From: Paraspadella gotoi
Lineage: Eukaryota; Animalia; Chaetognatha
Reading direction: 5' to 3'
Assembly (NCBI GenBank): GCA_051294375.1
Contig: CM119266.1
Coordinates: 20,872,780-20,936,779, forward strand
DNA: 64,000 bases
In this document: one piece after another, positions 3,001 to 64,000 of the stretch
Numbering within the stretch: position 1 is the first letter of the stretch
Layout of the letters: each line of letters opens with the position of its first letter
Made by a program: the position numbers and the translations under genes
The notes under the pieces: model-generated
The model's database searches: none
Told to the model about the DNA's origin: nothing
What the model saw: only the letters and a program-made list of their open reading frames with translations

Positions 3001-6000
3001 TGCAAAATCTCGTCTCTTTTCATGAGAATCGTGAAGTGCGACGACTCAGCAGCACCGCCACCGCCACCACCCGACCCCGCCTCCGCCTCTCCACTCTCTT
3101 CACCACCTCCTCCCACTTTCGCAACACTCTTCCACTCGACTCTACCACTCTGGAATAACACGGAGCCGTGAGTCAGAAGGAGAGAAACACCTGCCGAAGA
3201 ATAGAGGGAGGAGGAGGAGGAGGAGGAGGGCCTCCCGTCTTCGTTTTGAAAGAGAGAGAAATTCGAGATGAAGTGACGAGGAGGGAGAGAGGGAGAGGGT
3301 TTTCGGCGCCGGGAGGAATCGGCGTTCCAACGGCGGTCCGGCGTTGTCGGCGCCGAGAAATCGGCGGGCGTTCCGGCGACGAAGCCTTCATTAACCAAAT
3401 GATTATCGATCGGTCGTCGTTGGACAGATGGCCTCGTTAAATTCACAGGAGGAGGAGGAGGAGGAGGAGGAAGAGGAGGAGGAGAAAGCGATGAGGTGGA
3501 AGTGAAAAAACTTTCCCTTTTCTCAGCGACTTCGAAACGTCGGTCGTCGACCGGCGAGAGCGACGCCGATTGGTCAGACGAGCTGAACTCGGTACGTGAT
3601 TGGTCGACGTCGATTGTCCAGTCGCGTCCCTCGGTCAGCGTGACGATAACGTGACAAGCGTCTGTTGAGTTGATATCGGAGAGCGACGATGAGGACGGAT
3701 TTTTGAGTTTTTCGCTGATAACGCCGTCGTCGTCGTCGTCGTCGCCGTCGACGTCGTCATCCCTATCCACTCCAGCGCCGCCAGTGCACGTGACGGAGGC
3801 GAAGGGGCGCCCGAAAGTCGTGCCGATGGCGCAGGACGGCGCCGAGCGAGACAAGAAGACTTGACGGCGATAGGCGTCGGGAACGAACGTGCGAAGGACT
3901 GTAGGATAGGGTAGTGGGATAGGGTAGTAGGATAAGGTAGTAGGATAGGGTAGGGCAGATGTGGTGGGGAAAGAGAAAAAAAAAGATAAAGGATTAGCAT
4001 TTTTGTGATTTTTCGATTAAAATCTAAATTTCATTAACAAAATTAAACTTAACAGTCAGTTCCTTGCATTTTGATGCTAGTGAATATTGAGAGCATCCTC
4101 CAGGGACTGGCATAAAAATATCGTAATCCCCGATTAATTACTTAAGGAAGTGGTCCTTTTACACAATTAAAACATTTTATGAAATAGTATACCACTTCAT
4201 TTTTAGGGAAACCAGGTTCTCTGGGAGTAAATAATACAGAGTAGAGTCTGTGAGAGAGACTGTGCTTGAATTGTAAGTGTGATGGAGGGATAGCCTGTCC
4301 AAAATTTATTAAAATAATTGGTAATTTTAATATTGATTGTCCCAATTTCCTACTAATGCTATATTTAGACTGGGTGGCCACCAGCGCCACCACCAATCCG
4401 CCACCAGCGCAACCATTAACCCGCCACCAGCGCCACCACCAATCCACCACCAGCGCCACCACCAACCCGCCACCAACGCCACCACCATTGCCTCCTTTAA
4501 AAAAAAAAAGCGCAACGTCTTCTTTCGGTTGCGACCTTAATTTCCCCAACGTACGAAGCGATGACCTCGGAGGCCAAAGATAAAGACGCCGACGAAGGCG
4601 CCGCCGTCGTCGATGTCAGACGGCTTAGCTCAGGCGGTAAAGCCGTAGCGACGTGGCGGAAGATTTCCGGGTTCCTGACTCGGTTTAAGACAAGAGTTTA
4701 GAGGCTTTATTCCAGCGACTTTCCGGCAATGGCAAGGAATAAACGGTAAGGCGGGCCAAAATTGAACACTTTTTATAACTTTTAATTCTCTCAAAAAAAT
4801 TCTTTTTTTCCTTCTATTAATAAATCGATTTTCAATGCACACTTTTTGAAATAGTTCATTGAGTTGTCGCACTGAAGCTTTTAAATATTTATTAATATAT
4901 AACAAATGACAAAATTTTTTTTACAAGAATTAGTTTTTAAGAACGGATTCTATAGAACTTGAAAAGTTAAATGAAAGTTAGTACTACAATTTTTAAAATT
5001 TTGACAAAAAAATGGTTAAAAACAGAAAAAACGTTAAAAAATCATCATCATCATCACATTGGCTGAATTTTATAGTTTTAAAAATTTTTATCAATAAAAC
5101 AAAAAAATCTTAAAAATTTGTATTAATAACCTTTATCTAACTTTTAAAGCTCTATCAGAATCCATTAAAAAAATTGAAAAATTCAAAAAATTTTTTAACT
5201 ATATATAGTAATAAAATAATCTTTAAATGCTTCCGTGCGCTTATTAATAAGATAATTTTTTAAAATTATTTTTATTTTCATATTCTTTAACAGTCACTTT
5301 ATCATTATTTATTTGAGAGAACTTCTAGTTTTCAACCTGTTCTGGCCTAATAAACGGAGCTAAGATGTTTACTTCGATTAAAAATATATATTAATTGTAA
5401 AATTAGCTTTCTAAACAACTCACGAAAACCTCAGCCACAACAACAACAACCTTAACCCGGATGGCCCCGTTTTCTCAGCCGAAGTAAAAAAAAAAAGAAA
5501 AGAAAAGAAAGGAAAAGAAAAAGGTCGCGCGGGTGCTGGCGGGTGCCACGGGGTGCCAGTCTGCCAGATGCCATCGAGACGGCAGGTGTCGTTCGCAAAA
5601 ACGACAATAACGGTTGATGGATTTTTTTTCTTTCCTCCTTTTCTTTTTTTTTCTGAGCCGCTGGAGAAACGGAGGAATTTCAGGTCCTTTTTTTAGAGAT
5701 TGCCTTCGCCTTTTATTTCTTTTTTTCTGGAGGGGGGGTGGAGGGGGCGGAGCTAGAGGGGNNNNNNNNNNNNNNNNNNNNNNNNNNNNNNNNNNNNNNN
5801 NNNNNNNNNNNNNNNNNNNNNNNNNNNNNNNNNNNNNNNNNNNNNNNNNNNNNNNNNNNNNNNNNNNNNNNNNNNNNNNNNNNNNNNNNNNNNNNNNNNN
5901 NNNNNNNNNNNNNNNNNNNNNNNNNNNNNNNNNNNNNNNNNNNNNNNNNNAAGAAAAATCCTATTTCCTCCGTTTCTGGGAAAAAGGGAGGAAAAGGAGG

Positions 6001-8722: not shown

Positions 8723-11700
8723 TTTCTCTTCTTCCTTCTCTCTCCTCGTCTCTTTCCTCGCACACACTAGACCGGCCGGCATCGTTAATGGTTTTTCTTC
8801 TTATCACTTGCTCTATTCGAGGGATGACGTGAATTATAAAACGATGGGTTAAGTTGTTAGAGTAAATACATTACGTATTATTAAACGGACATTTATTTGT
8901 GATAATTCTTTCTTATTAAATTCTCTTAACCTTTATTCAATTTTAACAAAATCTCTTCGTACCTGAAGCGACAGAGTCGGCCATCGTGTTGAAGACGCGT
9001 TCCAACTTCTCCTCGTCCGCGATCCTCGTCGTCGCCGAGCGGCGCCACTTTCGGTCGTCACGTCGACGATCCACTTCACGGCGCCGCCCGACGCCGCTTC
9101 GAGGGTGGGTCTGGAGATGACTGGCGCCGGGCGCGCTTCGTCGCTCGCATCCGAACGTCAGTTTCGTCGTCGTCTTCGTCGTCGTCACGTTGGCTTCCAT
9201 CGCCTCGAGCGTCTCGTCCGCGAGATTCCTGGGGACGCCGTCCCAAACGCAGACGGCGACAACAGTGTGACGAAACTCGCAGACGTGATCGGAATGCGTC
9301 GCCACCAGCGCCAGGAGAGACTCGTCATCGCCTCGAATCAATAGCGGCGTCGTTGGTAAGGAATGTCGTTGCGGTTGTTGTTGTTGTTGTTGTTCTAGTG
9401 GAAATTCGTGACTCGAATTCGAATTATCTTCGCAGCTGAATTCTGATCTCGATCCTCGACGATCCTTTTGTTTCCACGTACTCGTCGGACCCCTATCATA
9501 ATTCAAAGTTACACTCGACGATGACATAAACGACCCTACAGGATCCGCCGCAGCCGCCGCAGCCGCAGCCGCCGCAACCGCCGCCGCCGAAGCGACCCAC
9601 TTCACTTCCCTGACGACAATTTCGGCGTCGGTCAAACACGATCTCTCACTCAACATCCGGCGGACGGCCGGAATGTCGGCACCGTGGCCCAAATCGGCAG
9701 ACGGAACCGGCGCAGACACTCCCGGACAATTGCATCGAACGCCGGTGGTTACATCCGGGGTTTGGGAATGTATCGTCATTACATCATGTTGAGGATCCGA
9801 GTTTGTTTCCGACGGAGAAGGATTCGTCGAGGTCGTCGTCGACGCCAGCGAGGGCGTCGGTGTGGGCGTCGACGTGGGCGTGGGCATCAAAGTGGGCGTA
9901 GGCGTCGAGAAGTGCGTGGAGTTCCTCGACGAAGACCGATCGTCGTGGTTGTCGCTCATCGGCGTCAACAGCGGGGGCGGTCGATGGGGAGACGCGGGGG
10001 AAGAAGGCGAAGGATGAGATCGAGGCTGATGGGGTTGATGGTGATGGTGATGGGGCTTGAGGTGAGAAGGCAGCTGAGACAGAAGACGATGGCGACCGAC
10101 ATCGTCGCGCCGATTCTCGACCAAACGACGCCAGCCGTCGTCGTCGTGATCGTCGTCGTCTTTATCGTCGTCGTCTCGACTCAAATCGAGATTCAAAATC
10201 GGAGGAACGAGATTGAAATCCGAAGAAGGAAATCGATGAAATTCGGAGGAAGTGGAGGGAGGTTGAAAGGAGGAGGTGGAGCAGGAAAGGAGCGGAGGGG
10301 GCGGAGTGGAGCTGGAGTTGAAAGGGAGAGTTGAGGTGCAGCTGGAGTGGAAAGGGGAAGTCGAGGTGGTACTGGAGTGAGAAGGGAGAGTCGAGGTGGA
10401 GCTGGAGTTGAAAGGGAGAGTCGAGGTGGAGCTGGAGTGAAAAGGGGGTGTCGGGGTGGAGCTGGATTGAAAAAGGAGAGTCGAGGTAGAACTGGAGTGG
10501 AAAGGGGAAGTCGAGGTGGAACTTGAGTTAAAAGGGAGAGTCGAGGTGGAGCTGGAGTTGAAAGGGAGAGTCGAGGTGGAACTGGAGTGAAAAGGGAGTG
10601 TCGGGTTGAAGGTTTTCGCTTCGTGATTTCGCTTCGATCCTCGATCTCCTTTCCTCCTTTCGAGTAGTTCCTCCCAACTTGGATTCGTCTTCCTTTCCTC
10701 CCTTCTTCCTTCCTCCATCCACCTTCTTTCCTCTCTCTCTCCTTCTCCCTCCCTTCGTCGCCAGCTGTTCCTCCATTCCTCCCTTTCTCCGTCGGAACAA
10801 TAAACGTTTTTTCGAGAGGCGAGAATCGAGGATTTCCACGGTTCGTCGCCGCACCCGCCGCCGCCGCCGCCGCCGCAGCCACCTCCTCCGGCGTTGTTGT
10901 TTTTTCCCTCATCACGTGACTCGGTCTCGTAGACACGTGACGAAAGAGAATCAGAGTCGGAAATTGATTTTCGTTTTTTCGCTTCTCCGAAATTTTCGAC
11001 GTTTTGGCGAAAGAGGAGAGGAGAGGGTAGCGGAGCGGATTCGGAAATAGGAGCAACGTAGGAGCGAGGCGGAAACCAAGAGTCGGGAAAGTGGAGCTGA
11101 GTTGGCGGATGATGAGCGGGTAAGGGCTGAGTCGACGGGTGAGGCAAGTGGGGCGAGTGATGGTGGGCTATGGGCGGGATATGGGGCGACGTCGATGAAG
11201 TATATGGAGGAGAAAGGGAGTGATAAACTGGATGATCGTTTAACTGCGCCTGTGGCTGGTGTGTCGAGATTGGATAGAGAGAGTGATGATTCGTCGAATG
11301 TGAGTTTGGCGGGAGGTGGTAGTGATTTGAGGGGCGTTCAAAGGCGGGAGGGTGTAAGGGATTGTGATGCGCATGCGCGAGATATTGAGTCGGCGGGTGT
11401 TGAGGCAGAGAGGCCGGGGGTGACGAGGGAATGTTAGGATGTTGTAGAGATGGCAGTGAAGTCAAAGGCAGATGATTATGCGGTGGCGGCAAAGAATCGC
11501 CGATCGAAAGGTTCGTTTGGGCAAAAAGACGAACCGAAGATGTAGAGAGCGGATCCATGGAAGGAGGATACAATGCAGCCGACGACGACGAGTGCGGCGC
11601 CGCCAGAGCGTTTCCGGCGCCGCTGATATCAAGCAAAGACGCCGGGTGTAAAGGACCGGCGTGACTCGGCGCCATCAACGGACGAATCGGCGCCATATTG

Positions 11701-13471
11701 ACGAAGTTTATGTCAAAAGGATCGAAGGAGTCCCGCGCCAACGTCGACGCCACCGACGGAAATCCGGCGTCGGAATGGAGCGACCGGAAGTCGTGGAGCA
11801 GCGGTGGTGGAGTGCAGGAGCTGGGAAGAACCATGGTGGAGCAGGATGGCGAGGATTCGAAAGAGATTGTTGTTGTTGTTGTCGTCGAATTCAGCGGCGA
11901 CGAATTTTGCTTCGAATAGAAAAATCTTCCTTCCGACGAAATCCGTTCTATGGTTTCTGCCTCTCGATGATTTTCCGTCGTCGTCGTCGTCGTCGTCTTT
12001 ATATTCGTCGTCGTCGTCCCTTCGAGCGAGACGTTTTCGCGATGAGAAACTCGCGCGTTCGTCGTCGTTGTGGTCGTCGTCGTCGTCGTCGTCGCGTTTC
12101 CCCCGCGGAAGGAGTTAAGATGATTGTTTTTCTTGGTCGCGGCCGTCGTCGTCTGTCTCGTCGTCGCTTTCGTCGTCGTCAACGCTTCGTCGTCCTCATT
12201 GTCGTCGTCGTCTTCGTCTCCAGGAAGCGAAGAACGGGCGCTGTCACCGGAAGTCAAAGCGAAAGGGCGCGGGAGAGTGGCGTGCGTGGAAAGACGAGGG
12301 CGAGGAGCGCGAAATGTTGGAGAGGGTGAGTTGATGAGAGATGAAGAATTGGGTCGGGGTGAGATCGTCACGAAGTCGCGTTGCGGTCGGTTAGGATGTG
12401 GCGGTCGGTAAGGATGTGGCGGACGGGAGGACAAAGGCGCGGGGTTGTAAGACAGGCGTGACAAGGGAACGGGCTCGGGAGTGTTGGAGAGGTGAGACAA
12501 AGGAGGCAAAGTGTCGAAAGTCGCCAAGAAATTATCGCTGTCATCCTCGAGGATTTTCATCTTTCTATTTTCTCTTCTTGACATTTCCAAGTTTCTTTCC
12601 CATTTTCGCCATAAATTGATTCAGTTGAAAATAAAATCATACTCTCTTCGTCCCTAATTGTTCTCTCATTTTCGGCGATCCCTCTCTCTTCTTCTCCAAT
12701 TGTTCTCTCTTTTTCCTCGAACGAATTCATTCTTTTCTTCGCTTCGATTCTTTTCTTTTCTGTTTTTTCTTCCAAAATCTTTTGTTCGTTTTTTCCCGTC
12801 AAGTTGTCGTCGTCGTCGTCGTGTTTGTGGTTATTGTTGTTTTTGTCTTCGTCATCATCATCGTCATCGTCTTCTTTTTCTTCGTCTTCGTCATCAAAAT
12901 CTGGCAGGAATTTCAATTTCGCGTCGCGCTCTTCTGTAAAGCGAGTGGCAAAGCGAAGGGGATTGTCAACGTTGCCATTGCCGCATGCTGGAAGGATGGC
13001 ATCGGCGCGGCGATCGGGGCCGGGAGCACGAGCGGCTTCGAAAAAACCGGCGTGGTTCGAAAAGACGCCGTCGTTCGTCTCTCTCGTCCGACGAAGGAAT
13101 TCAGGCATCTGAAAGTTTTGGACGAAAGCGTCGAGAAGAGACGCGGGCGAAGGAGTTGAGGATGAGGAGGAAGATGAGGAGTTGGAAGTTGAGAAGATCG
13201 AGGAGTTGAAAGGATGAGAAGATGAGGAGATGAGACGAGAAGAGGTTGAGAAAGGATTACATCCCCGCGCGCGTGGATGAGGCGATAACGCTCTCTCGTC
13301 GCCGCGAGGGGTCGGCGACTGCGGGGCGGAGACGAGATTAGTTCCGCGGTGATGATGATGATGCTGACGATGATGATGATGATGAAGATGACGATGATGT
13401 TGGTGAGGTTGTTCCTGGCGGCGGGGGGCGATGCTCCTCGCTCCGTCGGGGTTCGACTCTCTCTCCGTCAT
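1..13471 (-). CDS. TET: TET-family (Ten-eleven translocation) dioxygenase-like protein, highly diverged, probably catalytically inactive; >2800 aa, 3' end beyond window
   Basis: Two large coding exons: 13471..8963 (ATG of MTERESN; frame break near 12557-12620) and 3898..<1. The second exon appears open to the window edge: spot-translated, and the ORF track lists no stop-terminated ORF in that frame. The GT donor at 8962-8961 and CAG acceptor at 3901-3899 are both phase 1 and join EEKLERVFNTMADSVASV-LRTFVPDAYRRQVFLSRSAPSCAIGTTFGRPFASVTC, which matches TET2 [56 protein letters not shown]. Other collinear TET blocks: CNC (9726-9734), LGHGADIPAVRRMLSER, ESLLALVATHSDHVCEFRHTVVAVCVWDGVPRNLAD, TFGC (9147-9158) and GVSLLLTHGSVLFQ (3150-3191). 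Confidence 0.88.
4055..4330 (+). mobile_element. Copy of a short interspersed repeat family (family A), in the TET-like intron
   Basis: Shares ataccacttcat..gggaa.ccagg..ctctgggagt.aataa..gtgagagag..gtgatggagg..agcctgtccaaa with the other copies; 4055-4200 is the reverse complement of ~33430-33550. Confidence 0.7.
4376..4490. repeat. Minisatellite, unit approx. ccaccagcgccaccaccaa
   Basis: About five degenerate tandem copies visible directly. Confidence 0.8.
5762..6286. other. Two assembly gaps (N runs 5762-5950 and 6069-6286); further gaps at 7838-8005, 22953-23196 and 28064-28088
   Basis: Runs of n in the sequence. Confidence 0.98.
6400..6800 (-). mobile_element. Helentron-associated non-autonomous element (HINE/DINE-1-like)
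   Basis: The minus strand starts TTTTTAGTTGCG, then a short palindrome (CGAGTACTCG), CTATAAG and a (GTCY/GTCG)n microsatellite (6698-6750), with an internal (gacat)n tandem at 6451-6525. This is the layout described for HINE/DINE-1 elements. The far boundary is uncertain. Confidence 0.55.
10305..10604 (-). repeat. Coding 30-bp tandem repeat (~10 copies, PF[HN]SSSTSTL) in the TET-like N-terminal region
   Basis: Unit gtcgaggtggagctggagttgaaagggaga, repeated in frame. Confidence 0.9.
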
Positions 13472-18229: not shown

Positions 18230-18392
18230 AGTGAATAAACGAGACTGTGAGAGAGGCTGGTTCCTGTTATGTTAATATATTAGAAGCCTTAAACCACCAT
18301 ACCCTGTCCAAAGTCAGGGACAAAATAGCTCAACATCAGCTTATTTATTAAATGAATGGATACTTTATATATTGGTTTTACCAATTTCATTA
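18230..18392 (+). mobile_element. Family A repeat copy
   Basis: gtgaataaacgagactgtgagagag..gccttaaaccaccat..ctgtccaaagtcaggg..ttattaaatgaatgga..tatattggtt. Confidence 0.7.
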
Positions 18393-18554
18393 AGTCATGT
18401 GAAAAAAAATTGAGAAACACATTATTTTAAAAGAAAAAAAATAATAGTTGAATTTTTTTCATTATTTTTCATGTTTTTATTAAAATCGGACGATGTCTGT
18501 CATTCATTCTGTTTTTGACTTTGTTGCCATTTTTGTCAAGGTCTCGTCATGTTT

Positions 18555-28209: not shown

Positions 28210-28420
28210 GTGAAGTGGAGAGAGAATCTTGATTAAAAAGCTTGCAGGGTCTTGATAAGTGGAGATAGAGTCTTGATTAAAAAGCTTGCAAGGTCTTGAT
28301 AAGTTATTATCTTGTAAGATGAATGGTGGCCTTAACCAACCATAGCCAGGGGACAATGGATGAACATTGAATGAATTGGACAATGAATGAATAATTTTAT
28401 ATTGGTTGTTCCAACTTTAC
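28210..28420 (+). mobile_element. Family A repeat copy
   Basis: gagtcttgatt.aaagcttgca..ttatcttgtaaga..ggccttaaccaccatagcc..aatgaataattttatattggttg. Confidence 0.65.
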
Positions 28421-31654: not shown

Positions 31655-31765
31655 ATATGAAATTGGTACACCCAATATAAAAATTATTCCATTCATTTAA
31701 TAAATAAGCTATCTTCGCCCCTGACTTTGGACAGGCTTGGTGTGTTTAAGGCCTCCATCACTCTT
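31655..31765 (-). mobile_element. Family A repeat copy (partial)
   Basis: ccaatataaaaattattccattcatttaataaataagctatctt.gcccctgactttggacaggct..tttaaggcctccatcactctt. Confidence 0.7.
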
Positions 31766-33329: not shown

Positions 33330-33760
33330 CTACAGATTAAGACATAGCACCGGGTCCCTGCAAGCTTTCAATCAAGACTCTCTCACCAGTCTCGTTTATT
33401 CACTCCCAGAGTACCTGGCTTCCCTATCAATGAAGTGGTATAAATTTCAAAGAATTGTTTCAATTGTATGAAAAGACCACTCCCTTAAGTATTAGATCGG
33501 GGGAATACTTATTGTATTCCGCACTAGCATCAAAATACAAGGAGCTGAATTTTATAAAATTGTTACAACCAATATAAAAATTATCCATTCAATCTAATAA
33601 ATAAGCTATCTTGCCCCTGACTTTGGACAGGCTGTTGGTGGTTTAAGGCCTCCATCACTCTTACAAGATAATGACATAGCAGGTCCCTGCAAGCTTCAAT
33701 CAAGACTCTCTCACAGTCTCGTTTATTCACTCCCAGAGTACCTGGCTCTCCCTATCACGA
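33330..33760 (-). mobile_element. Two adjacent family A repeat copies
   Basis: The block caagctt.caatcaagactctctcac.agtctcgtttattcactcccagagtacctggct.ccctatca occurs twice (~33360-33430 and ~33690-33758). Confidence 0.75.
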
Positions 33761-34362: not shown

Positions 34363-37300
34363 ATGGAAACGGCAAAAGGTAAGCGTTTCAATTGTCAGGT
34401 ATGTAGAATATTGAACAATTTTTTGGTTTTTTTGTTTTACGAATGTCAATAAATGAATAATTATTGAGTGTAATTCTCTTCAAGTTTTCGACGTGACCGG
34501 ATCTGCCTTAGCGCCCTCTTCGGAGGAGCGAAAAAAATATGAAAACGCGAACGAGAAACCGGAAGAAGAAGAAAAGGAAGAAGTGAACAACGGAACGCCG
34601 AAAGCTTTGCTAATTCTTTGTGAGTTTTCTTGCTCTTTTGTTTGTCTTTTAATATTCTAAGTTTTAAAGCGCGCATGTCTTTCTCTCAGCGGTGATCGGC
34701 TGCGCGAGCGCATTGGTTGACGCTACCTTCGACTGGCTCGTCGCCATAGAAACCACGGTGTCTCTTAAGAAAGAAAAAATCTTTGGCGACGTTTTTGTTC
34801 ACGAGCATCACTTGGGTCAGACATCGGGGTCATGAAGTTTTTTTCTTTGAAGACATTCTTCACCTTGTATGCTTTCCCTTTAAAGGCATCGCCATGATCG
34901 CCTTCCTAATCATTTCCGGTTTTCGCGTCGCCTTCTTCGAGCTGAGATCCTTCAGCGCCTCCTCGCGCGTCTTTTTAGCGGCGCTCTCGACGCCGCTGGC
35001 GCCACTTTTCGGCATTGGTCACCGACTGAGAGTCATCTACAGGATCTTCCGTCTGCCGGAGTAGGGCTGACTAGAGTCGTTTTCAAAATTCAATGTGCAA
35101 TGTACAAAGTTATCTAATTCATCGCCATTTTTTTTTGTGACAAGCGCCGTCGCTGTACGCGAAGATCACGTGATCAGCTCCATTTCCAAGCGTCTCTTCG
35201 AATTGACTGTCATGGAGGCGATGTGGGAGAGCGGGCCTCAACTCCTTCTCACTTGCTTCAAAATAGGCAATTTTTTTAACAAAATCAACTTTTCATTTTT
35301 TACTCATTATTATTATACTCCCTGTGCTCGTGATGACGTTTAAAAAAATCCGTGACTTGTGGCGGTATATTCACACCGCCTCACGTCCACTAAACTTCTG
35401 CCAAAATCCATTGGCTCAGAGGGGAACACACCATCCCAGGCGTTACAGTTCCATCCACAGTCCATCGACTTCCCTCTGCGTTGGCAAAGCGACACCGTCC
35501 TAGGGGTAACCGCGCCAGTGACTGAGGCGTCACTAGAGTCGGAAGCCGCAAAGCCAACAGTGTGATACCCCATCCCAATGGGCATCACAGGCAACCCGGC
35601 TGTTGCCATAGACTCTTGTTGTTATTATACTGAACTATGATTTTTTTTTGGTAATGTTATAAATCCTGACAACAAAAGAAGTGACAATATTCCAAAATGT
35701 CCCCGTCCCCGTCCCCGTCCCCGTCCCCCTCCCTGTCCCCGTCCCCGTCCCCGTCCCCTTCCCCTTCCCGTCCCCGTCCCTTCCCCGTCTCAGGATTGGG
35801 CCCACAAAGTCAATCTCCTCGAATTCCTCTCCATTTGCTCTTCCGCCTTCGGTCTCTCGTGGTCCCTCGTCTCCGCCTACGACAAATGGCGTCGGTTGGC
35901 GCGCGCGTCGCCGCTTCCGGCCTCTCGTTCGGTGGCGATGAGCGCCGCCGTGGCGGTGGTGATCCTCGGCGCCGTTCAAACGAGCGCCGTCTTCAGCGTG
36001 GAGAGCGAGCGAGACGGCATCTTCGTTCCGACGAGCGAAAACGAGGCCGCCGAGCCGGACCGCACCACGCCGGGCCTGCTATTCCTGATGATGCTGATGC
36101 CTTTGACGGCGCTGTACCTGGCGCTGGCGTCGGTGCCGCAGCTGACGCTGGCCTTCGTTCCGCTCAGCGCGGAGACGCTGCACGCGCTCTCGTCGCCCAT
36201 GAGCGGCTTGACGCTGGCGGCCCGTCTTTGCCCCCTTTTCTTTCTCTTCTTCGTCAACTCGTTCGCTTCCGTCGTTTTCGTCTACAGGGACAACTACCCC
36301 ATCGACGACGAGAGCGAAATCTTTTTGACGGATTCCTTCTTCAAGGTGAAGATATCATATTGGATTATATTTATTTAATGTCCTTTTGGAACTTTTTATG
36401 TTAACTAATGGATGGAATAGATCTCATAGGTCTAATAAACATATATTGTTTTCACTTTTAATTTAGATGACATAGATCACATTAACTATATAATATATAT
36501 ATAGTAGTACATATTGTAGTATATATTGTTGTCACTTGTTCTTTTTCAATCAATTATAATTAATTTACTAAACGAAAAAAGTTTTGGGTGTCAACAACGA
36601 TTACAATTTTTTTCCTCGGTCTTGTTTCGACTAAGTTCTTCCACTTCGTCAATTGAGATTGTGATTGTCACCAAAATAAATTGTTTTCGTTTACTATTTC
36701 AAACGCAACGAATCGAAAGTTGATATTCAATTTAAATTATTTTTTTTTAACAAAAAAATTCTTCAAGGTGGAATGTCCGTGGGAGGCTTTGCCAGATACG
36801 ATCTGCAGAGTTCTGTGGAAGAAGATGGATTATAAAGTCAGTTACGGAAGGTGTGAAAAAAAAAGAAGATTTTACACGTTGCACTCGAGCTCGCCTCATT
36901 TTTATAATCATCCTATTAACATCCTTTTAAGGCGATACTTTATATTTTACCAACTGATTTGGTTGTGCTTCACAATCGCCGCCTTCGTCTCCCTCAGTTT
37001 CTTCATCATAATTTTCCGTGAAAACAATGGACAAACTCTCTTTCGATCGCTTTACGTCAACAAGCTGGTGGAGAAGAGCAAAGCTTATTTGAAAAGGATG
37101 AAGGAAGTGAGAAAAGGAGTTTCGATTAACCTCAGCGAACAAAAAAAAACCCATATTTAATTTATTGTATTCCAGATGAACCGATGGAAAGGACTACACA
37201 AAGAAATCGGGGATGTCGAGAGAGAAATTTGCAGGCTCGGCGACAAAGAGAAACTTCTCGCAGGTTTTGTCTTCCATCTAAATCGTTTGAAATTTAAATT

Positions 37301-39386
37301 TAAGATTTAATTTCGATTCAGATTTTGACGACGGCGATCACCAGCTCAACTATCTTTTGGGTTTAATCGCCAACGCGGCAAACGCCACCTACGTCGACCA
37401 CGATTTGACCCGCTTTCTCAGTTCCAAACATCTGAAGACCAGCTCGAAAGAAGATCGACCGTCGACCCCACGAGGGAAGGAGTCGCTCGGGCAACGCGCT
37501 CGCCGTTGGCTGCTCCTCGCCGCCGTGCCCGCCATCTACGCCGTCGAGCTGACGGTCTGCTCGGCCGCCGTTTATTCACTGACCACCCGGTGTCCGCGGG
37601 GATTCGGTCAATTCCTTCCCGTCCGCGGCGACTGCTTCGCCTTTCGCGGAGACGCCGGGTTTTTGAGCTACGAGTCGGCAAGGGAGGCGTGTCGAAGAGA
37701 GGACGGGATGTTGGCTGAGGTGTATTCGAAGAAAGACTTGGACGTGATACAAGTGAGGTTATGTGAACTATAAAAATATAGGGAGTGGAAGAGGTCTTTT
37801 ATACCATTGAAACATTCTTTGAATTATTATACCACTTCATTGATAGAGAAGCCTGGCACTTTGGGAGTGAGAGAGAGTGAGAGAGAGACTGTGAGAGAGT
37901 CTTTATTGAAAACTTGTAAAAGTGATGGAGGCCTTAAACCACCATAGCCTATCCGAAGTCAGGGGCAAGATAGCTTATTTATTAAATGAATGGACTATTT
38001 TATATTGGTTTTAGCAATTTCATATTAAATTCATATTTTCCTTTCTTTCATTCTAACCCTAGCAATATCTGGCCCACGTTCTCAATCACTCGCGCTCATT
38101 TTGGATCGGGCTGACTCGTCGCCCCTGGTCGCCGTTTATCGTCGAAAAGTTCGCGGAGAAAAAAACTTTTCGTGAGCTTGTCTGGAACTCGACAGACATG
38201 ACCCCTAAGTACGCCATCCCCTGGCAGGCGGGGAATCCGAGCAAGGACGGCGATTGCGTAGAGGGATATCTGGCGTCGGTAAGTATTAATGCTTTCATCT
38301 TTTATAAAAAAAAGAAAAGAGGCTTACACATTAAATAATGTATATAGTATACATATACATTGCTTTTCGACTTTCTTTTCTTTGCGTTTTAAATTTAGAG
38401 AAAACGAAGTTTTATTTGTTACAAACAACTATAAAAAAATCGTTATTTTTAAAAAGAAAACTTTGTAAACAATTTATACGTAAAAGATAACAAATTTAAA
38501 CTGCGAGACTTTTTTGGTTTCTGGTCCAGACAACAGGGAAGTTCCTCTTCAACGACATGAATTGCTCCTGCATCAATTGCGTGGGCGCCTACCTTTGCGA
38601 GTATGTCGGGAAGGAACGCCTCTCTGCAATGGAACGCCCCAAATTTCCAGAGTGTCCACCGACTTTTCAGGATTTCGTCTTCGAAGAATCTTGTTATCAT
38701 TACGAGGCAAATATGGAAGAGGTCTAGTTTTATGTTTTATTTACCTTAAGTTATAAAACAAACATTGCCCCCCGCGAAATTTGACAAGAGGTAAAAAAAT
38801 GAATTAAAAAAATGCGCTAATTTACATTGGGGAAAAAAGTATATTGAAAGTATACTACAATTTTTTTAAAAAGAACTAAAAATCTAAACCGTTTGCTATT
38901 TTGTTTTCTTTTCGAAATAAAGACCTCTGCCGGCTGCGGCCTTTGGTGGATCAGCGCCCAGGAGAAGTGCCTCGACAACGGGGGACACTTGGCCGTCATG
39001 GAGACCCCTGCGGAGTGGAAGGTCGTCAAGAAGTTCCTGCTGCTAGAAGAATCGAAAGGCGGGAAAGGCTGGATCGGGGCCAAGCTGACTCAAGCCCAGT
39101 GGGTCAACGGGGTTGAATGGACTAACAAATCGGGATTTGGCCTTTTTAAGGATGGTGAGGAAAAAGAAGAATTGCAAGAAAACGAAATTAATTTAAGAAC
39201 GTTTAAATTTTTTTTTTACGAGGTGAACTGACCGACATGAGGCGAGGGGATTGTCTCATCACTGTCCCGTCAGATGTCATGAACGGTGATTACGACTTGG
39301 GTTGGTTCTTTGCTAAATGCAAGTACGGCCTTCCTTTTCTCTGCGAATGGAACGCCAGTTTTGAGAAGACGAATCGAACTATTTAA
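34363..39386 (+). CDS. XK-related (Xkr scramblase-like) multi-pass membrane protein with two C-terminal C-type lectin domains
   Basis: Phase-compatible exons: 34363-34378, 34485-34619, 34690-34815, 34886-35060, 35145-~35266 (donor unresolved), 35794-36345, 36768-36850, 36932-37106, 37176-37263, 37322-37752, 38063-38278, 38530-38721, 38923-39154, 39223-39386 (TAA). XK-like motifs: LVDATFDWLVA, LTVMEAMWESGPQLLL, SICSSAFGLSWSLVSAY. CTLD1: CPRGF..GDCFAF..SYESAREACRREDGMLA..FWIGL..WQAGNP..DCV..YLCE. CTLD2: CPPTF..SCYHY..WISAQEKCLDNGGHLA..WIGA..WVNG..DCL..W...C...LPFLCE. Confidence 0.78.
35342..35608 (-). ncRNA. Candidate structured non-coding RNA (or structured SINE), antisense within an intron of the XK-lectin gene
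   Basis: GC-richer island made almost entirely of consecutive hairpins. G-U pairs favour the minus strand, it ends in a T7 run, and GTATAATAA lies ~15-20 nt upstream. Family not recognised. Confidence 0.45.
35699..35790 (+). repeat. (GTCCCC)n hexamer tract directly before a CAG acceptor
   Basis: About 14 degenerate units ending at the 35793 acceptor. Confidence 0.85.
37800..38025 (+). mobile_element. Family A repeat copy (intronic)
   Basis: ataccacttcattgatag..gggagtga..gtgagagagtc..gtgatggagggccttaaaccaccatagcct.tcc.aagtcaggggcaagatagcttatttattaaatgaatgga. Confidence 0.75.
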
Positions 39387-40497
39387 TGTAATGTAAGACA
39401 AAAACACTATGCTATTCACGCGCCTGTCAATACATACTTAGCGAGATTAATCTGGTTTAAATTTAAATTGAAAAAGTATACTATAACTGTATTCAATTTC
39501 TTGACTTTCTTTTTCGAGAGTAGATCTTTTTAACTAGTAAAAATGCCATAAAAAAGGTTTTATGATCACATTAGAATTTAAGCATTAAAATATTTTGAGA
39601 AAAAAAGTACAGTGAGAGATTTACCAAATATAAGGGGATAAGGTCAAAATAAAAGGGTCAAATCGATAGAAGGAGATGTCTGAATAACTCAGTGAAATTT
39701 TCATTGGCCAAGTTGACTGGAAAAACCTAAAATAATCCTAATCGAATTATATACTCGGCCCCGGTACGAACTCTAACAATTTAGGGTCACGTAAAATTTT
39801 TTTAATGATTTCGGCTCTTGCTTAAAGCGCGCGGTACAAAAAAGTAGTAAAATCTGTAAAGTTTCTGATTTTGAATTTAACACGATTTAATTATTTTTTT
39901 TTTAAATCGACTTAATATAAATAAACATCCATTTTGATACTCAAAAGTTAAAATTTTTTAAAGTTTCCTTTCGATGCAACGACATCAACCGCTCTCTCAC
40001 CTTCAATTTCTTGAGAAAATATTTGCTTTTACAAGCAGCCTCTCAGAAATTCAAAGTGAACCAGTTGAAAAATGATCCGCGTTAAAATTGTTTAAAATAA
40101 AAAAAATTCTAGATTAATCCATTGAACGCTTGATAGCTCGTGAAAAGATTTCACTAAAAGAAGAAGAACTCAACAAATTCACACTTACATCTCGATCTGT
40201 GTACGAGAACGTGAGCGAAGAGATTTGTGTTTTAATCGAAAATAAATAAAAAATGTGGAGCTTTTCATCTGAGCTTTCGTTTTTCACCAACCTTTTCCGT
40301 CAATGTAAAGATTTTTAACTCTCAACAATAGACGTCGTTGATCTATATACTACTTCGTGTATCTACTGCCATCTTACAGTCCATTCGCCATTTTACTGCC
40401 ATCCATTTTACCAATTTAACTAAATACTGCCATCTCTTTTCATCGATCCGTCTCTATTCTCCCACCGGAATCCATACCCAGATACCACAGCACGATC

Positions 40498-42680
40498 ATG
40501 GGCATCAACGTAACCTTGTCTTGGCCTGACTACGTGGTGGCCGTGCTCTGTCTCGCCATCTCTGCCGGTATCGGCGTCTTCTTTCGGTTCGCGGGCGGGC
40601 GACAGAATTCGACGGAGGAATTCCTTATGGCCGACAGGCAAATGAGCGTTTTTCCGGTGGCGCTGTCGCTGCTGGCGTCTTTCGTTTCTGCCATCACGGT
40701 GATCGGTAAGTGAAACACATTCGATTTTAGGATTTAAAAAAAAAAGTTTAATTATTTAATCTAATCTAATATATAATCAAAACTTTGTGGCGAATTCTAA
40801 TTTCGCCTCCCGTATTGCTTGGTGAAACTCAGCTCGTCCCATTGGTTTGGACAGCTAAGCTCTCATTCACCAACAGTGAGTTCCAGGTTCAATCCTTAAA
40901 CGGTCACGCTGGTTATGTGTGATGGTGTTGGCATAAACACTCACGTGACATAGGGTGAAGGTCCAAAGCCCTAAGCGCTAGCTGTTGGGAGATGCCTCAC
41001 ACCCCGGGCATCACACATGTCTCCCCGTTCCCATACTGTGTCATAATTTATGATTCATTTCATCTTTTCACACAACTCCCCACAAAAGGCACTCCTCCGG
41101 AGACTTACGTCCACGGGACCCAATATATGCTCCTCGCCGTCGCCAACTTCTTCGTGATGCCCATCGCGGCGCATCTCTACATTCCGGTCCTCTACCGACT
41201 CCGCCTCACCTCCGCCTACGAGTATCTGGAACTCCGCTTCGACAGGCTCGTCCGAACGACAGCCTCCATCGTCTTCTCCTTCTGGATGATCGTCTACATG
41301 TCGGTGGTGCTTTACTCGCCTTGCTTAGCCCTCAGCGCCGTCACCGGGCTTAACCTGTGGATGTTGATCGCAGTGACGGGGATCATCTGCGTTTTCTACA
41401 CGACCCTTGGCGGAATGAAAGCGGTCATGTGGACGGACGCCTTCCAGATCCTGGTCATGTACTCGGGGATCGTGGCTTTTCTCGTTCTGGGATCGTCCAA
41501 CGAGGGCGGGTGGTCGGCGGCGTGGTCCGTAGCGGAGGAACGAAGGCGCGTCGAGTTCGGGAACGTGAACCCCTCGCCGCTGGATCGCCACACGGTGTGG
41601 TCCTTGCTAATCGGAGGCGCTTACACCTGGCTGGTCATCTACGCCATCAACCAGTCGCAGGTGCAGCGGTGTTTGGCATCGCCGACGCTACGAGCGGCAC
41701 AGGTGGCGATGTGGCTCAACGTGCCAGGCCTGGCGATGTTTCTTATTCTTGCGGCGCTGTGCGGAATCTTGGCGTTGGCTCGGTACCGCGACTGCGACCC
41801 GTTGGCCGGCGGAATGATTTCCAAGATTGATCAGCTCTTCCCGCTCTACGTGATGGACGTGCTGTCGGCTTATCGCGGATTGGCGGGACTCATCATCGCC
41901 TGTATTTGCAGCGCTTCTCTTAGCACCATCTCCTCAGGCCTCAACTCCCTCGCCGCGGTGCTGCTCCAAGACGTCGTTCGTTCTTACATCCGACCCAACA
42001 TCACCGACTCGGGCGCCACAAAGTTTTCCAAGGTCGTGTGCGTGGTCTACGGAGCCCTGGTCATGCTGCTCACGTGGGTGGCGTCTAAACTTGGCAGTAT
42101 TTTGACGGTGGCGTTGGCTCTGCACGGCGGCATCGGAGGTCCACTGCTGGGAGTCTTCACCTTGGGTATCTTTCTTCCCTGGGCAAACGCGGCTGGAGCC
42201 TTGGCGGGGTTGTTGTCGGGCGTCGGGATCACCATGTGGATCATCATCGGCGCTCAAGTCTATCCCGCCCCCGTGAAGAAGCTTTGCGTGTCGACGACTG
42301 GCTGCGACGAATTCGCCGAGTTTACCGTCCTCGAACCGAACTACACCATTCCAAAGTTGACCTGCAACGCCTCGTCGATGGTCCGCTATCCCGATCTCGA
42401 CGACTACGAAGGTCTCGTCATCTACAGGATCTCTTACATCTGGTACAGTTTTTTGGCCGTCATCGTCGTCCTCGTCGTCGGCGGCGTCGTTAGCGCCATC
42501 TTCGGGTTCAACTCGCCCAACGACGTGGACGAGAGATTGGTGTCGCCCCTTTATCACTTTTGTTGCGCGAAACTGCCCGAGAGATGGCGGGAGAGGTGTA
42601 GGTGTCGGAAGGCGGAAGGGAAGGGGGAAGGGGAGGGAGAAGTAAAGACAGAGATCGAGGAGGCGGAAGAGAAACTATGA
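40498..42680 (+). CDS. SLC5 sodium:solute symporter, SMVT/SMCT (SLC5A6/A8/A12-like) clade
   Basis: Exons 40498-40705 and 41089-42680, phase-1 GT..AG. Motifs: DYVV..[91 protein letters not shown]. Confidence 0.95.
40820..41040 (+). mobile_element. Possible tRNA-derived SINE in the SLC5 intron
   Basis: B-box-like GGTTCAATCC at 40886-40895, preceded by the hairpin ctcatt-caccaac-agtgag, in a GC-richer island. Only one copy in the window. Confidence 0.35.
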
Positions 42681-43969: not shown

Positions 43970-46169
<2,200 letters not shown>

Positions 46170-59800: not shown

Positions 59801-62067
59801 TATATTATTAAATAACTATTCCGAGGAAACGCATTGGCAGTGTGAGCCCAATCATTACTTAAGACTTTATTTCTTAACGAAACCTAGACGAAGCCCTATG
59901 AGACATTTTTTCGGTCTGTCTGTCCGTCTCTCTCTGTCCGAGAACATTACATAAATAAAAAACTAAGCTTAAAACACTCATCGGGGCGGAGATAAATATG
60001 GATCGCCCGAGCAACAAGAGCACCAATCCCTTCCTCTCACTCTGCGGCTCCTTGCAGGCGGGCGTCCCTTCGAATCTCGGATTCAACCCGACGGCGATGA
60101 CGCTGACGAAGCCCATGACGACGATGACGAAGTCGAGCCATCCCCAAAAGGATCGCGGGAAGTAGTCCTTTTTGTGGGCGATCAAGCGGACGATGAACTC
60201 GAAAATGTAGAGAGCGAGGAATATGTTGTCGACGAGGAAGAGATAAACGTTGTCGCATTCCTTCGTCGCCTCATACACGATCGGAATCAAGTTGAGGATG
60301 ATGATGATGATGAAGATCACTTCGAACTTCATGTCCTCCACCATCTTTTTGACGCAAAGCTTTACGCGGGAGGAGGGGGGGAGGGAGATGAGGTTCGGTG
60401 GAGCGGGTTAAGTCATTGCATCAATGTGTCATCAGCGAACCTGCGAGCACCGCTTCGAGCTGGCGTCTTCTTCGGGAGTCGCGTTCGCGTTCTGATTGGC
60501 CAATTTTCGCTTTCCGCCTACTGTTCTGTTCCTGTTCCTTATGCGCGAGTTCCAACTTGTAATTTCATTTTTATTTGGGTAGCGGGCGCTGTTGTTCTCG
60601 TTGGCGTTTCCCTTGTTACACCAATTAATTGAAATATTTTAAATTTTCGTGGTCGTTCTTCTTAATTCAAGCCTTTGATTTGAATGAGAAGAAAAAAAAC
60701 CGACAATTTAAAAAAAAAACATTAAATAAAAAGTAAAAATAAAAAATTAACAAAATAGTAAACAAATATACACAAAATAAACAAACATGAGGTGACAATC
60801 ACCTTCGCCTCGATTCCCTTTTCCTCTTCATCCGCGTTGCGATTTTTGGGCGTGTCCTCCATCGCCTGGGATTTGTTCTTCGCGTTGGTTCCCTTGAGAG
60901 TTGAGTAAATTAATAAATTAATAAATTAATAAATCAATTGATAAATTGTAAAGCATCTTAATGAAAATTGAACGAAAAAGAGAATATTGGGGGCCTTAAC
61001 CCAGCATAGCCGGTCCAAAATTCAGGGGCATGAAAGCTTATTCATTAAATGAATAAATAATTGTAACATTGACAATATTTGACAAATAAAGATTGACCAA
61101 GCGAAAAATTCGTAAGTCGGAAGGACTATCACCAATTTAACCATATTCATTATTAATCATTTGATAATCTAAAATGTTCTACTATAGACCCAACACGAGA
61201 ACAAACCTTATTAGCCGACTTCTTTTCCTTTTTCTTCTTTAAGTTGGAGGGCATGCCGACCTGAGCGTAGAGCCGACTGTGCTCAGCCCGCTCGTCAGCC
61301 ACTTTCTCGACATCGGTGTACCCTTCCTCCGTCTCCGCCAACTCTTCTGTTCTGGTGGACGGAAATTAAAACGAAACTTTGGCCTTATTTTCCCAGAAGG
61401 CCCAATTTCTTCCTCGATTCGAAATCGGGTAAATTCTTATTCAAAATTAAATTAAAAGTTACTTTTAGGGATTATGAATTAGATTAATGATTAAGGTTAT
61501 GGATTGGTTAGAGTTAGAGTTATTAGGGTTAGTGATTAGAGTTTAAGGTTAGAAATTAGGGATAAAGGTTTTGGGCGAGGGTTTAAGATTCGGTCAAGGT
61601 TAGGGATTTTGTGATAAGCTTAAAAAATTATATGAGTTAAATATTAAATTCTGAGATAAATGATTATAAATGGGGCACTCTCGGAATAGAGAGCACGATA
61701 GTTATTAGGTAACAGGTATAGTCAGAGTCATCGTTCATTTCGTGTTGGCCAAACCTCGAGTGCAACTCGTGCGTGGACCACTGGCCGATGCGACTCTGCT
61801 CGTACTGGGTCAAATAGGAGACCCCCTCCAATCGGAGCAGGCGGTGACGAGACTCCTCAACCATGTCGATGACCTCCTTGCTGGAGGGCTGGTTCTGAAC
61901 CTTGACGTTACACTCGGGACAGGTCGTTTTCCGGTCGAGGAAGACGTCGCTGTCGTCTTCCTCGACGTCGTAGACGTTGTCGAGGATGACGATCTTCTCG
62001 ACGCAGACCCAGTCGGCGTCCGCGAAGAACTTGTCGCTCTTTTTTAGGGGAGTGGGGAGGTGGGCGT

Positions 62068-62123
<56 letters not shown>

Positions 62124-62194
62124 AGACCGAAAATTAATAAACGCCAACAGGGCATCGCCAAAAAAAGCCGTGAGAATCATTTAAAGTGAAGCCG

Positions 62195-62235
<41 letters not shown>

Positions 62236-63810
62236 CAATCTCGGAGGTCGTCCTTGAAAAGACGAGAGAGACAGGCCAAACAGCCAAACGAAGCGGTTTC
62301 ACGTCAAACAAAAACTTTTAACCCAATTTCTGACCTGCAGGATCCCGCTCATCTGAGTGACAGAGTCTTCTATCTTCCTCAACGCGGCCGCCATGTTGAT
62401 TCTTTTGGCGACGGAAGCTTTGGAGAATTCGAGGACGTTGAGAAGCGACCCCGTCGTCGTCGCGTTGAAGATGAGGGTAAAGAGGACGACGCCGATCGTC
62501 CAGATGAGGATCGATTGATAGCGAGACTGAACAGCAGAGGGGGGGGGAGCGGAAGATATATGGACATTGGACAGTAGGGTGGAGTGATGAAAAGATTGAG
62601 CGATGGAAGAATTTTTTTTGCTGCCTTTGTATACGTAATAAAAAATAATTAAGCCCTTTTTTTAAAAAGAATGGCATAACAGTATCATAATTTGAATTTT
62701 CTTTATAGTAATATTCTAATAAAATCATAAAATTTCAAAATCATATTTTTTCGATTTTAAGAACAGTTTCTGATTCACCGGAAAAAACTGAAAAACTTTT
62801 GTAAAATATGTCTCATGATATTTTTAGGTTAAAGCAGCGAAAAATGACTAAAATGTTTCTTCATATTATAGTTTCTATTACAGAGCGTAAAAAAGTAGAG
62901 AATTTTGACCTTTTTTCAATTTTTGACGCTGAAGACATATAAATTTTAAATAACTTATTTTCTATTTTTGATCTAACTTTTTATGAAAAATCAGAATCTT
63001 TAATAAAATTCTTTCAAAAATTATTTAAAAAAAATATTATTCTGAAAGGATATTACTATAAATATATTGTAATTAATGATACTGATCCCCAAACAATGTA
63101 ATCTAAATATTTTTTGTACTCCTTAATCATACTATCTCACGTCTAAATATCCTTGTTTGTTCACTCAAATAAAATTTCTGTTCCCCAGTGCTCCATTCTT
63201 TTGGACAGCATAGTCGCTCTATATGTAACAGTGGCAGTTCATAAGGTTGAACAATGCGAGGGCCTTTCTAAGCAACAATAAATTCAGCCAGAGCTGACAA
63301 CATTTTTCCCCAATATATTTTTAGAAGAAAGTTCTTTGTCAATTCAAATAATTAAATTTATCAACTTTATCTGGGGTCTCATTATCACGAGTATCATTAT
63401 CACATGTACTGAAAGACCGAATGGTTTGCCTCCATTGGCTTATCCGTCTTTTCTGCTGATTGACCAATCAGAGATTGAGATTGAGAGAACCAGATCATTC
63501 TTCAGATACCTGTCCTTTTCTGTCTCGTACACTAAAAAAATGCAAATAAGATTTTAGAGTCCTAATAAAACCTTCAAGGTGTGATGATTGACGTAGTGCC
63601 AGTAGATGTTGTCCACATTTTCCTCCTTGACGACGAGCGCCAGCGCCAGCCCCACGGCGCCGCGAAGTCCGCCCCAAATCATCGTTAACGCCGTTTTCCA
63701 GTTGATACCGTAACCCGTTCGTTTAAGTATCGGATACAGAAACACAATCACGATCGTCCGGATGCCGATGACCAATATGTAAATGGCGATTGTCTCGCCA
63801 ACAGCGATAC
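56853..63810 (-). CDS. SLC9C1: SLC9C1-like (sperm-type) voltage-gated Na+/H+ exchanger, 3' portion; 5' exons lie beyond the window
   Basis: NHE C-terminal helices (GYGINWK..WGGLRGAVGLALAL, 63810-63572; GVVLFTLIFNATT, 62526-62335) and ADADW (62038 exon). VSD S1-S3 (60347-~60040: FE...IILN, F..LYIFEFIVRL, WGWLDFVIV) and S4 KMIKLIRFFRLARLFR (~59413-59460). CNBD-like GLYFIASGTV (~58500-58530). Last exon 56936-56853. Confidence 0.9.
60990..61065 (+). mobile_element. Family A repeat copy (partial)
   Basis: ggccttaacccagcatagccggtccaaaattcaggggca..agcttattcattaaatgaat. Confidence 0.55.
61378..61620 (+). repeat. Family B repeat copy (degenerate TTAGGG-like interior)
   Basis: tttggccttattttcccagaaggccca followed by a degenerate ttaggg tract, as at 15738-16092. 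Confidence 0.6.
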
Positions 63811-63855
63811 CTGGCAACAGAAAAGGCAACGTCGTAGGCACTTTAAAATTTCTTA

Positions 63856-63977
<122 letters not shown>

Positions 63978-64000
63978 TCTCACACACACACCCGGCTTAT

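Follow-up and report, generated by a model that had tools for sequence, protein, structure and literature searches.

Does the 64,000-nucleotide stretch of Paraspadella gotoi DNA analyzed here (Chaetognatha; GenBank assembly GCA_051294375.1, contig CM119266.1, forward-strand positions 20,872,780 to 20,936,779; hereafter the window, with positions counted from its first letter) encode an XK-type membrane domain fused to C-type lectin-like domains (CTLDs), and what might such a protein do? Our analyses leave little doubt that the fusion is real. A full XK fold, a ninth helix and tandem CTLDs make up a genuine, rare and apparently undescribed layout, found in two very divergent proteins. We tentatively read the product, with somewhat less than even confidence, as a protein of about 900 residues whose XK-fold domain, linker, ninth helix and two CTLDs would constitute a plasma-membrane scramblase with its own single-pass partner.

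Read from splice signals and phase, an exon chain on the plus strand runs from an ATG at 34363 to a stop at 39386 in 14 exons (Table 1), with GT-AG borders in 12 of the 13 introns and GC-AG in intron 5. In the window generally, introns are many, exons are GC-rich and introns AT-rich. Exons 1-5 comprise 191 codons and one base, and exons 6-14 another 710 codons plus the stop, all eight of their junctions being in phase. The preliminary description of this DNA had posited one exon chain with phase-compatible, stop-free junctions between membrane region and lectins. The latter is borne out over the 710 codons; of the single chain, the exons and splice sites are present, but the frame breaks inside the XK part at the exon 5/6 joint. 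The motifs it had named were also located, namely D-x3-D and the extra hydrophobic segment (Table 1) and E-A-x2-E-S-G-P-Q-L, which begins at 35215 in exon 5; its S-x2-S-x4-SW-L-x2-Y helix is present at 35830-35880 in exon 6, although the spacing given there was approximate. By a synonymous-codon score the model frame is the best of three in 12 of 14 exons, the exceptions being exons 1 and 9, and in exon 2 the frames are nearly tied. Contigs from a run guessed to be RNA (X1), which represents a small share of words and in which uncovered exons say nothing on expression, skip GT..AG introns here and in a nearby symporter gene, and they bridge introns 5, 8 and 13 of the chain. No paralog of the fusion gene was found within the 64-kb window.

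That one gene holds an XK-type domain and two CTLDs is supported by an independent fused relative and by fold searches. With exon 6 as query, phmmer returned 10 hits at E<=0.001 from 1.84 billion representatives; one of them, P0005, was dropped as a repetitive false match with unrelated Pfam domains, and P0006 was excluded from alignments A3 and A4 and P0008 from A3. Four long relatives, P0001 to P0004, matched with E 3e-31 to 1.6e-16. P0001 (406 amino acids) has a complete membrane domain with 34% identity over model residues 39-456, and P0002 and P0003 are partial sequences. P0004, in contrast to the seemingly unfused P0001, carries all parts on a single open reading frame of 1,020 amino acids (3,747-base contig): its membrane domain (24% identity over residues 48-445) is followed through a linker by a ninth hydrophobic helix at 644-662 and then by two stretches that match Lectin_C (E 4e-12). 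Among the four, one is fused, one seemingly unfused and two are too short to tell. Since a profile search returned P0004 alone, the layout is rare in the searched collections, in which animals are poorly covered. Against P0004, the start of CTLD1 reaches 22.3 bits, compared with no more than 12.6 bits per domain for lectins in the Protein Data Bank (PDB), and exon 10 matches P0004 by tblastn with E 6e-6. On these CTLD1 scores, sequence comparison favors, though short of proof, a single old fusion behind both proteins, while their linkers (z -0.2), ninth helices (z 0.1) and CTLD2 (z 1.9) are not significantly alike. Word-index searches with exons 5 and 6 gave no match, nor was the relatives' DNA recovered in two scans of metagenome contigs. 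Listings and abstract openings of the literature searched described no XK-CTLD fusion, in line with the novelty claimed earlier; one might still be recorded in InterPro or in supplements to genome papers, though probably with a name other than XK.

The XK/XKR identity of the membrane domain rests on predicted fold and motifs, and the XK fold itself we consider very probable. The structure models show eight helices in two four-helix repeats, with 14-15% identity in structural alignments. In XKR8, residues D26, D30, R134, E137, E141 and R183 are required for scrambling, and R214-D295 and R98-D129 are stabilizing bridges conserved in the XK family (PMC8500837). The window protein has the acidic path, with D61/D65 in the first transmembrane helix (TM1) and E175/E179 in TM3 at the same i, i+4 spacing as XKR8, an equivalence set by spacing and helix order rather than by residue-level alignment. 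D-x3-D is kept in P0001 and P0004 and E-x3-E in P0001, P0002 and P0004. TM3 further shares its Trp, second Glu and Pro among all four long relatives and its first Glu among three, and its PQL kink reads P182-Q183-L in the window protein and P0004, and P-S in P0001-P0003. All five proteins retain an Arg where TM4 ends; R134, R183, the R98-D129 bridge and the W45 gate have no exactly assignable counterparts.

For the lectin half, Pfam Lectin_C matched the pieces from exon 10 (E 0.025), exon 11 (E 0.064) and exon 13 (E 6.8e-5), of which only the last passed the cut-off. All 23 PDB matches of exon 13 at E<=10 are CTLD proteins, and the best, albeit weak, PDB matches of the CTLDs are of NK-receptor and snake type. 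The Lectin_C matches, together with conserved cysteines and a W-I-G motif, mark these domains as C-type lectin-like. Calcium-dependent sugar binding by C-type lectins uses an EPN or QPD motif plus WND. These are absent here, as the preliminary description had stated: at the corresponding places, set by eye from the CTLD pattern, CTLD1 has N-P-S and F-N-D (partial) and CTLD2 has E-L-T and W-F-F. Given the missing motifs, it is plausible that the ligands are non-sugar or bound independently of calcium. XKR9 has eight helices and a cytosolic C terminus (PMC8298096), and by this precedent the linker is likely cytosolic, with the ninth helix carrying the lectins outside. N-glycosylation sequons agree with this placement in 7/7 cases in P0004 and in 6/8 in the window model, and basic residues round the ninth helix (4 vs 2 and 3 vs 2) show a weak charge bias. 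The lectin part of the P0004 structure model was of low confidence and was not used. We rejected the idea that the ninth helix carries a basigin-like Glu, because the P0004 helix has none.

The linkers of the two fused proteins are about 120 and 220 residues long and mostly of low confidence in the structure model. Each fused protein contains exactly one DxxD[G/S/A] motif, a caspase-type pattern, at residue 491 in the window protein and 494 in P0004, both in the linker. XKR4, XKR8 and XKR9 are cut by caspase after TM8 (PMC8298096, PMC10938166), and XKR8 is also activated by release of its C-terminal tail without cleavage (PMC10938166). The motif may suggest control by cleavage no less than ligand sensing, with the lectin half acting as a built-in partner.

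A built-in partner combined with tail release is our preferred mechanism, held at a little under even odds, and that the protein scrambles lipids at all is moderately probable. D61/D65 and E175/E179 would form the path for lipid head groups, like D26/D30/E137/E141 in XKR8, and the linker would replace the inhibitory C-terminal tail. Linker release, most likely by a caspase cut at DxxD, would turn scrambling on, and the same cut would leave the lectin half no longer covalently attached. The ninth helix and lectin half might serve the XK domain as basigin serves XKR8, in surface delivery. Moreover, the lectin half could keep the scramblase at bound cells or particles, probably via non-sugar or calcium-independent contacts.

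Characterized XKR scramblases are switched from inside, by caspase, kinase or tail release, and have a separate Ig-domain partner. In XKR8-basigin/neuroplastin (PDB 7DCE, 8XEJ; PMC8500837, PMC10938166) the partner is a separate protein carrying Ig domains, whereas here the extra helix lies in the same chain and lectin domains take the outer position; basigin is a type I protein, while the ninth helix of the window protein runs inside-to-outside. The window protein also differs from XKR8 in apparently having neither an R214-D295 pair nor an R134-type residue, in giving no Pfam XK-related match and in the low structural-alignment identity given above. As described for XKR4 and XKR9 (PDB 9BOJ, 7P14/7P16; PMC12334663, PMC8298096) and Caenorhabditis elegans CED-8, these proteins have no ninth helix or ectodomain. 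The caspase cut in XKR9 frees 16 residues, whereas here it would free a membrane-anchored lectin piece of 400 residues, and CED-8 is cut at its N terminus, unlike the linker site proposed here. Seen from the lectin side, the protein is like the type II C-type lectin-like receptors NKG2D, LOX-1, CD69 and CLEC2D in having a cytosolic part, one helix and a CTLD without EPN/QPD/WND, but its CTLDs are in tandem and contain insertions, and its cytosolic part extends into the XK-fold domain. PDB matches to these receptors are weak (best single domain 12.6 bits, window piece) and indicate no ligand. A natural single chain with ninth helix and lectins offers a route to ask whether an outside signal gates an XK fold, which role a partner helix plays and whether scrambling needs the second-repeat salt bridge. 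As the Pfam profile does not pick up the domain, the whole family would be missed in searches by architecture, and invertebrate XK-fold diversity is likely undercounted.

Several observations weigh against reading the protein as a scramblase with a built-in partner, and they concern family identity, the switch and the gene structure. Pfam XK-related matched none of 11 window pieces at E<=5, none of the 10 search hits at E<=1 and, over the whole domain, none of four aligned relatives at E<=10, in a scan of exon pieces and relatives that had no known XKR as positive control; the preliminary description had named the lack of such a match as refuting its reading, and on this point the outcome goes against it, the family being too divergent for the profile. 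Exon 5, exon 6, P0001 and alignment A2 had no PDB sequence match to solved XKR chains. Foldseek matches to XKR structures reach E values of only 0.013-0.083 and a TM-score of about 0.5, and the fold was predicted on two relatives, not on the window protein. Judged by helix content, an internal Arg in TM5 and any Asp in TM7 are each found in none of five proteins (window, P0001-P0004), and the R214-D295 bridge seems lost; the place of R134, three before E175, holds T, S or A, none of them basic. The short relatives P0007, P0009, P0010 and P0011 have an Asp in mid-TM7 where the window protein has Asn, which suggests a sub-branch nearer the XKR8 D295 state. With the acidic path kept and the TM5/TM7 bridge apparently gone, the first repeat, holding the lipid path, appears XKR-like and the second appears to have drifted. 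We regard the protein as one of XK fold that likely works as an XKR and is not a member by the Pfam definition.

On the part of the switch, shuffled linkers contain DxxD[G/S/A] in 11% and 10% of trials, and the two linkers are dissimilar (z -0.2), so homology of the two caspase-type sites is not demonstrable. Purified hXkr4 and CED-8 scramble uncut (PMC12334663), and with purified XKR9 no scrambling was seen (PMC8298096); from this it follows that neither fold nor site fixes function. P0001 ends about 25 residues past TM8, and the fusion need not be universal in the family. In the gene itself, contig joints are lacking for 10 of 13 introns, one contig starts at a second exon 8 acceptor whose use would remove most of TM8, and splicing exon 5 directly to exon 6 on the window letters shifts the frame and leads to a stop at codon 398.

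Alternatively, in keeping with the ligand-sensing scramblase inferred in the preliminary description, the protein might be ligand-gated, with lectin binding or clustering shifting the ninth helix and linker and opening the lipid path in living cells. The receptor-like layout fits, as the outer binding domains connect through helix and linker to the XK domain at its regulatory end, and the layout is preserved in two very divergent proteins; XKR8 activation by tail release without cleavage (PMC10938166) is in agreement with this. We nevertheless consider it unlikely, since the long, unconserved and largely low-confidence linker would hardly serve as a rigid lever, and neither a ligand nor a coupling of lectin binding to gating emerged from the analyses. 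A broader version, in which such Pfam-invisible XK-fold receptors start lipid scrambling in living cells either by ligand binding to the tandem lectins or by an unhooking caspase cut, we rate as similarly doubtful. If true, it would provide invertebrates with a self-contained device leading from recognition to phosphatidylserine, for phagocytosis, cell fusion or immune tagging.

The protein could also be a lectin receptor or adhesion protein whose XK fold has stopped scrambling and instead anchors it in the membrane or offers a scaffold or docking site. The apparently missing R214-D295 pair and R134-type basic residue would agree with this, as would divergence past Pfam detection and the fact that six of nine human XK-family members are listed as orphans (PMC9333335); the table of that article has phosphatidylserine substrate entries for XKR4, XKR8 and XKR9. 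If the path were idle, however, it would be difficult to account for acidic pairs kept at only 24-34% identity, and a protein that has given up scrambling appears improbable to us, to about the same degree as ligand gating.

A further reading has the locus make two products, an XK-only protein with a read-through end (37158 or 37308) and, on its own, a type II lectin from transcripts entering exon 8 at 36998, e.g., by trans-splicing. One contig match in exon 8 indeed begins at a second acceptor, AG 36996-36997, with 14 unplaced letters before it, possibly a trans-spliced leader or an artifact. Furthermore, in-frame Met codons lie at the end of exon 8 and the start of exon 9, P0001 looks XK-only, and no contig joins exons 6-7, 7-8 or 9-10. 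Yet P0004 holds both halves in a single open reading frame, and both halves share exon 8, whose TM8-bearing part is spliced to exon 9 (contig 37106 to 37176). Exon 10 has no Met ahead of the ninth helix and intron 9 measures 58 bases, so the lectin half starts in exon 8, 9 or upstream. The 14 letters equally fit a splice from exon 7, which would be in frame but cost TM8 22 residues (a splice from exon 6 would break the frame), and the upstream acceptor of exon 8 is backed by the relatives in alignment and profile. We consider two separate products very unlikely, and the second-acceptor form may be no more than a minor isoform. Nearby intron 7 (36851-36931; 81 bases) has no in-frame stop, and its retention would preserve the frame; the relatives' profile favors the spliced form (274 vs 263 bits).

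There remains the frame break at the exon 5/6 joint. Only with the 86-base piece 35420-35505 counted as an exon does the frame stay open, over 930 codons, and we rejected this piece: it lies in a high-copy repeat, is skipped by the spliced contig, is absent from the relatives and lowers the score against the profile of four relatives (255 bits vs 274 for the direct join with X at the break). The X1 contig spans 35159-35267 and 35799-35852 with three letters between. Its 166 bases compare with 167 for direct splicing and 253 with the 86-base piece; being one base shorter than the direct splice, it restores the reading frame. The alignment shows an equal residue count at this joint in the relatives, and the discrepancy site adjoins a 100-base low-complexity tract. 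Most likely the extra base is a slip in the assembly. That the window copy is instead a broken allele or young pseudogene with a genuine frameshift is most improbable, for although its own letters are out of frame and the correcting contig has a depth of 2, stems from a single run, was not read letter by letter at the joint and may come from another individual (2 differences in exon 14), the exactly restored frame, the matching residue count, the bordering low-complexity tract, 710 stop-free codons in exons 6-14 and the strong codon bias of exon 6 speak against it, and even then P0004 would demonstrate a fused protein. As a side observation, intron 5 (35267-35793) contains a second high-copy repeat, found nowhere else in the window, and its 3' end is a (CCCCGT)n tract.

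Table 1. Exons of the XK-CTLD gene and associated features, in window positions
Feature	Position	Strand	Support or remark
Exon 1, start codon	34363..34378	+	ATG and GT donor; without homology or RNA support
Exon 2, charged N-terminal tail and TM1 start	34485..34619	+	AG/GT, phase; P0001 alignment begins at residue 39
Exon 3, TM1 with D-x3-D = D61, D65 (34719-34733)	34690..34815	+	tblastn P0001 39%
Exon 4, TM2 and inner-leaflet helix region	34886..35060	+	tblastn P0001, P0004; hydropathy
Exon 5, hydrophilic TM3 with E-x3-E and PQL, GC donor	35145..35266	+	contig 35159-35267, continuing in exon 6
High-copy repeat in intron 5, containing the 35420-35505 piece	35300..35630	.	contig depth about 20,000
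One-base discrepancy, window longer than contig	35794..35800	+	place inferred from coordinates, contig letters not read
Exon 6, TM4-TM7 of XK-fold domain	35794..36345	+	phmmer matches P0001-P0004; third-position GC (GC3) 0.84 in model frame
Exon 7, outer loop preceding TM8	36768..36850	+	phase; aligns with loop motif of relatives; no contig joint listed
Exon 8, TM8 (36933-37016) and linker start	36932..37106	+	aligns with TM8 of P0001, P0003, P0004
Exon 9, charged helical linker	37176..37263	+	contig joint 37106-37176, GT..AG
Caspase-type DxxD/G, residues 491-495, across exon 9/10 joint	37263..37335	+	sole such motif in model
Exon 10, linker remainder, ninth helix (37507-37581), CTLD1 start (37591)	37322..37752	+	contig 37328-37546
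Exon 11, CTLD1 middle	38063..38278	+	Lectin_C E 0.064
Exon 12, CTLD1 end (38601) and CTLD2 start (38653)	38530..38721	+	phase, cysteine pattern
Exon 13, CTLD2 middle	38923..39154	+	Lectin_C E 6.8e-5; contig joint with exon 14
Exon 14, CTLD2 end and stop	39223..39386	+	contigs 39222-39286, 39260-39428

Neighboring genes encode a sodium:solute symporter, tubulin, a WD40 protein, TRAP-gamma and an ion-transport-domain protein, and a Pfam scan of the window found no functional link from them. The symporter gene (40497-42680; SSF E 8.8e-32) consists mostly of one large exon, and its intron between 40704 and 41088 is confirmed by a 1,937-base contig. A dispersed high-copy repeat at 33546-33757 has further copies at 4128-4288, 18230-18393, 28264-28419, 31655-31765, 37787-38033, 45397-45532 and 60988-61054. 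Within it, a Twister-P5 ribozyme match on the minus strand (33616-33659) scores 24.3 bits, under the cut-off of 37.6, with an E value of 0.09 when 7.5 kb were searched and of 0.77 over the whole window; the other copies are unmatched, and no Rfam match close to the gene reaches its cut-off. Many microRNA-family matches at 62072-62236 were likewise below cut-off and were discarded as a low-complexity artifact of facing (GA)n/(TC)n tracts. Two long open frames on the minus strand, 3-4016 and 8946-12620 (1,338 and 1,225 codons), are rich in homopolymeric amino-acid runs and have no Pfam match at E<=0.01. Also on the minus strand, at 59877-63979, Ion_trans exons (E 3.5e-10) lie downstream of Na/H exchanger-like pieces, a gene that may resemble the sperm-type exchanger with a voltage sensor.

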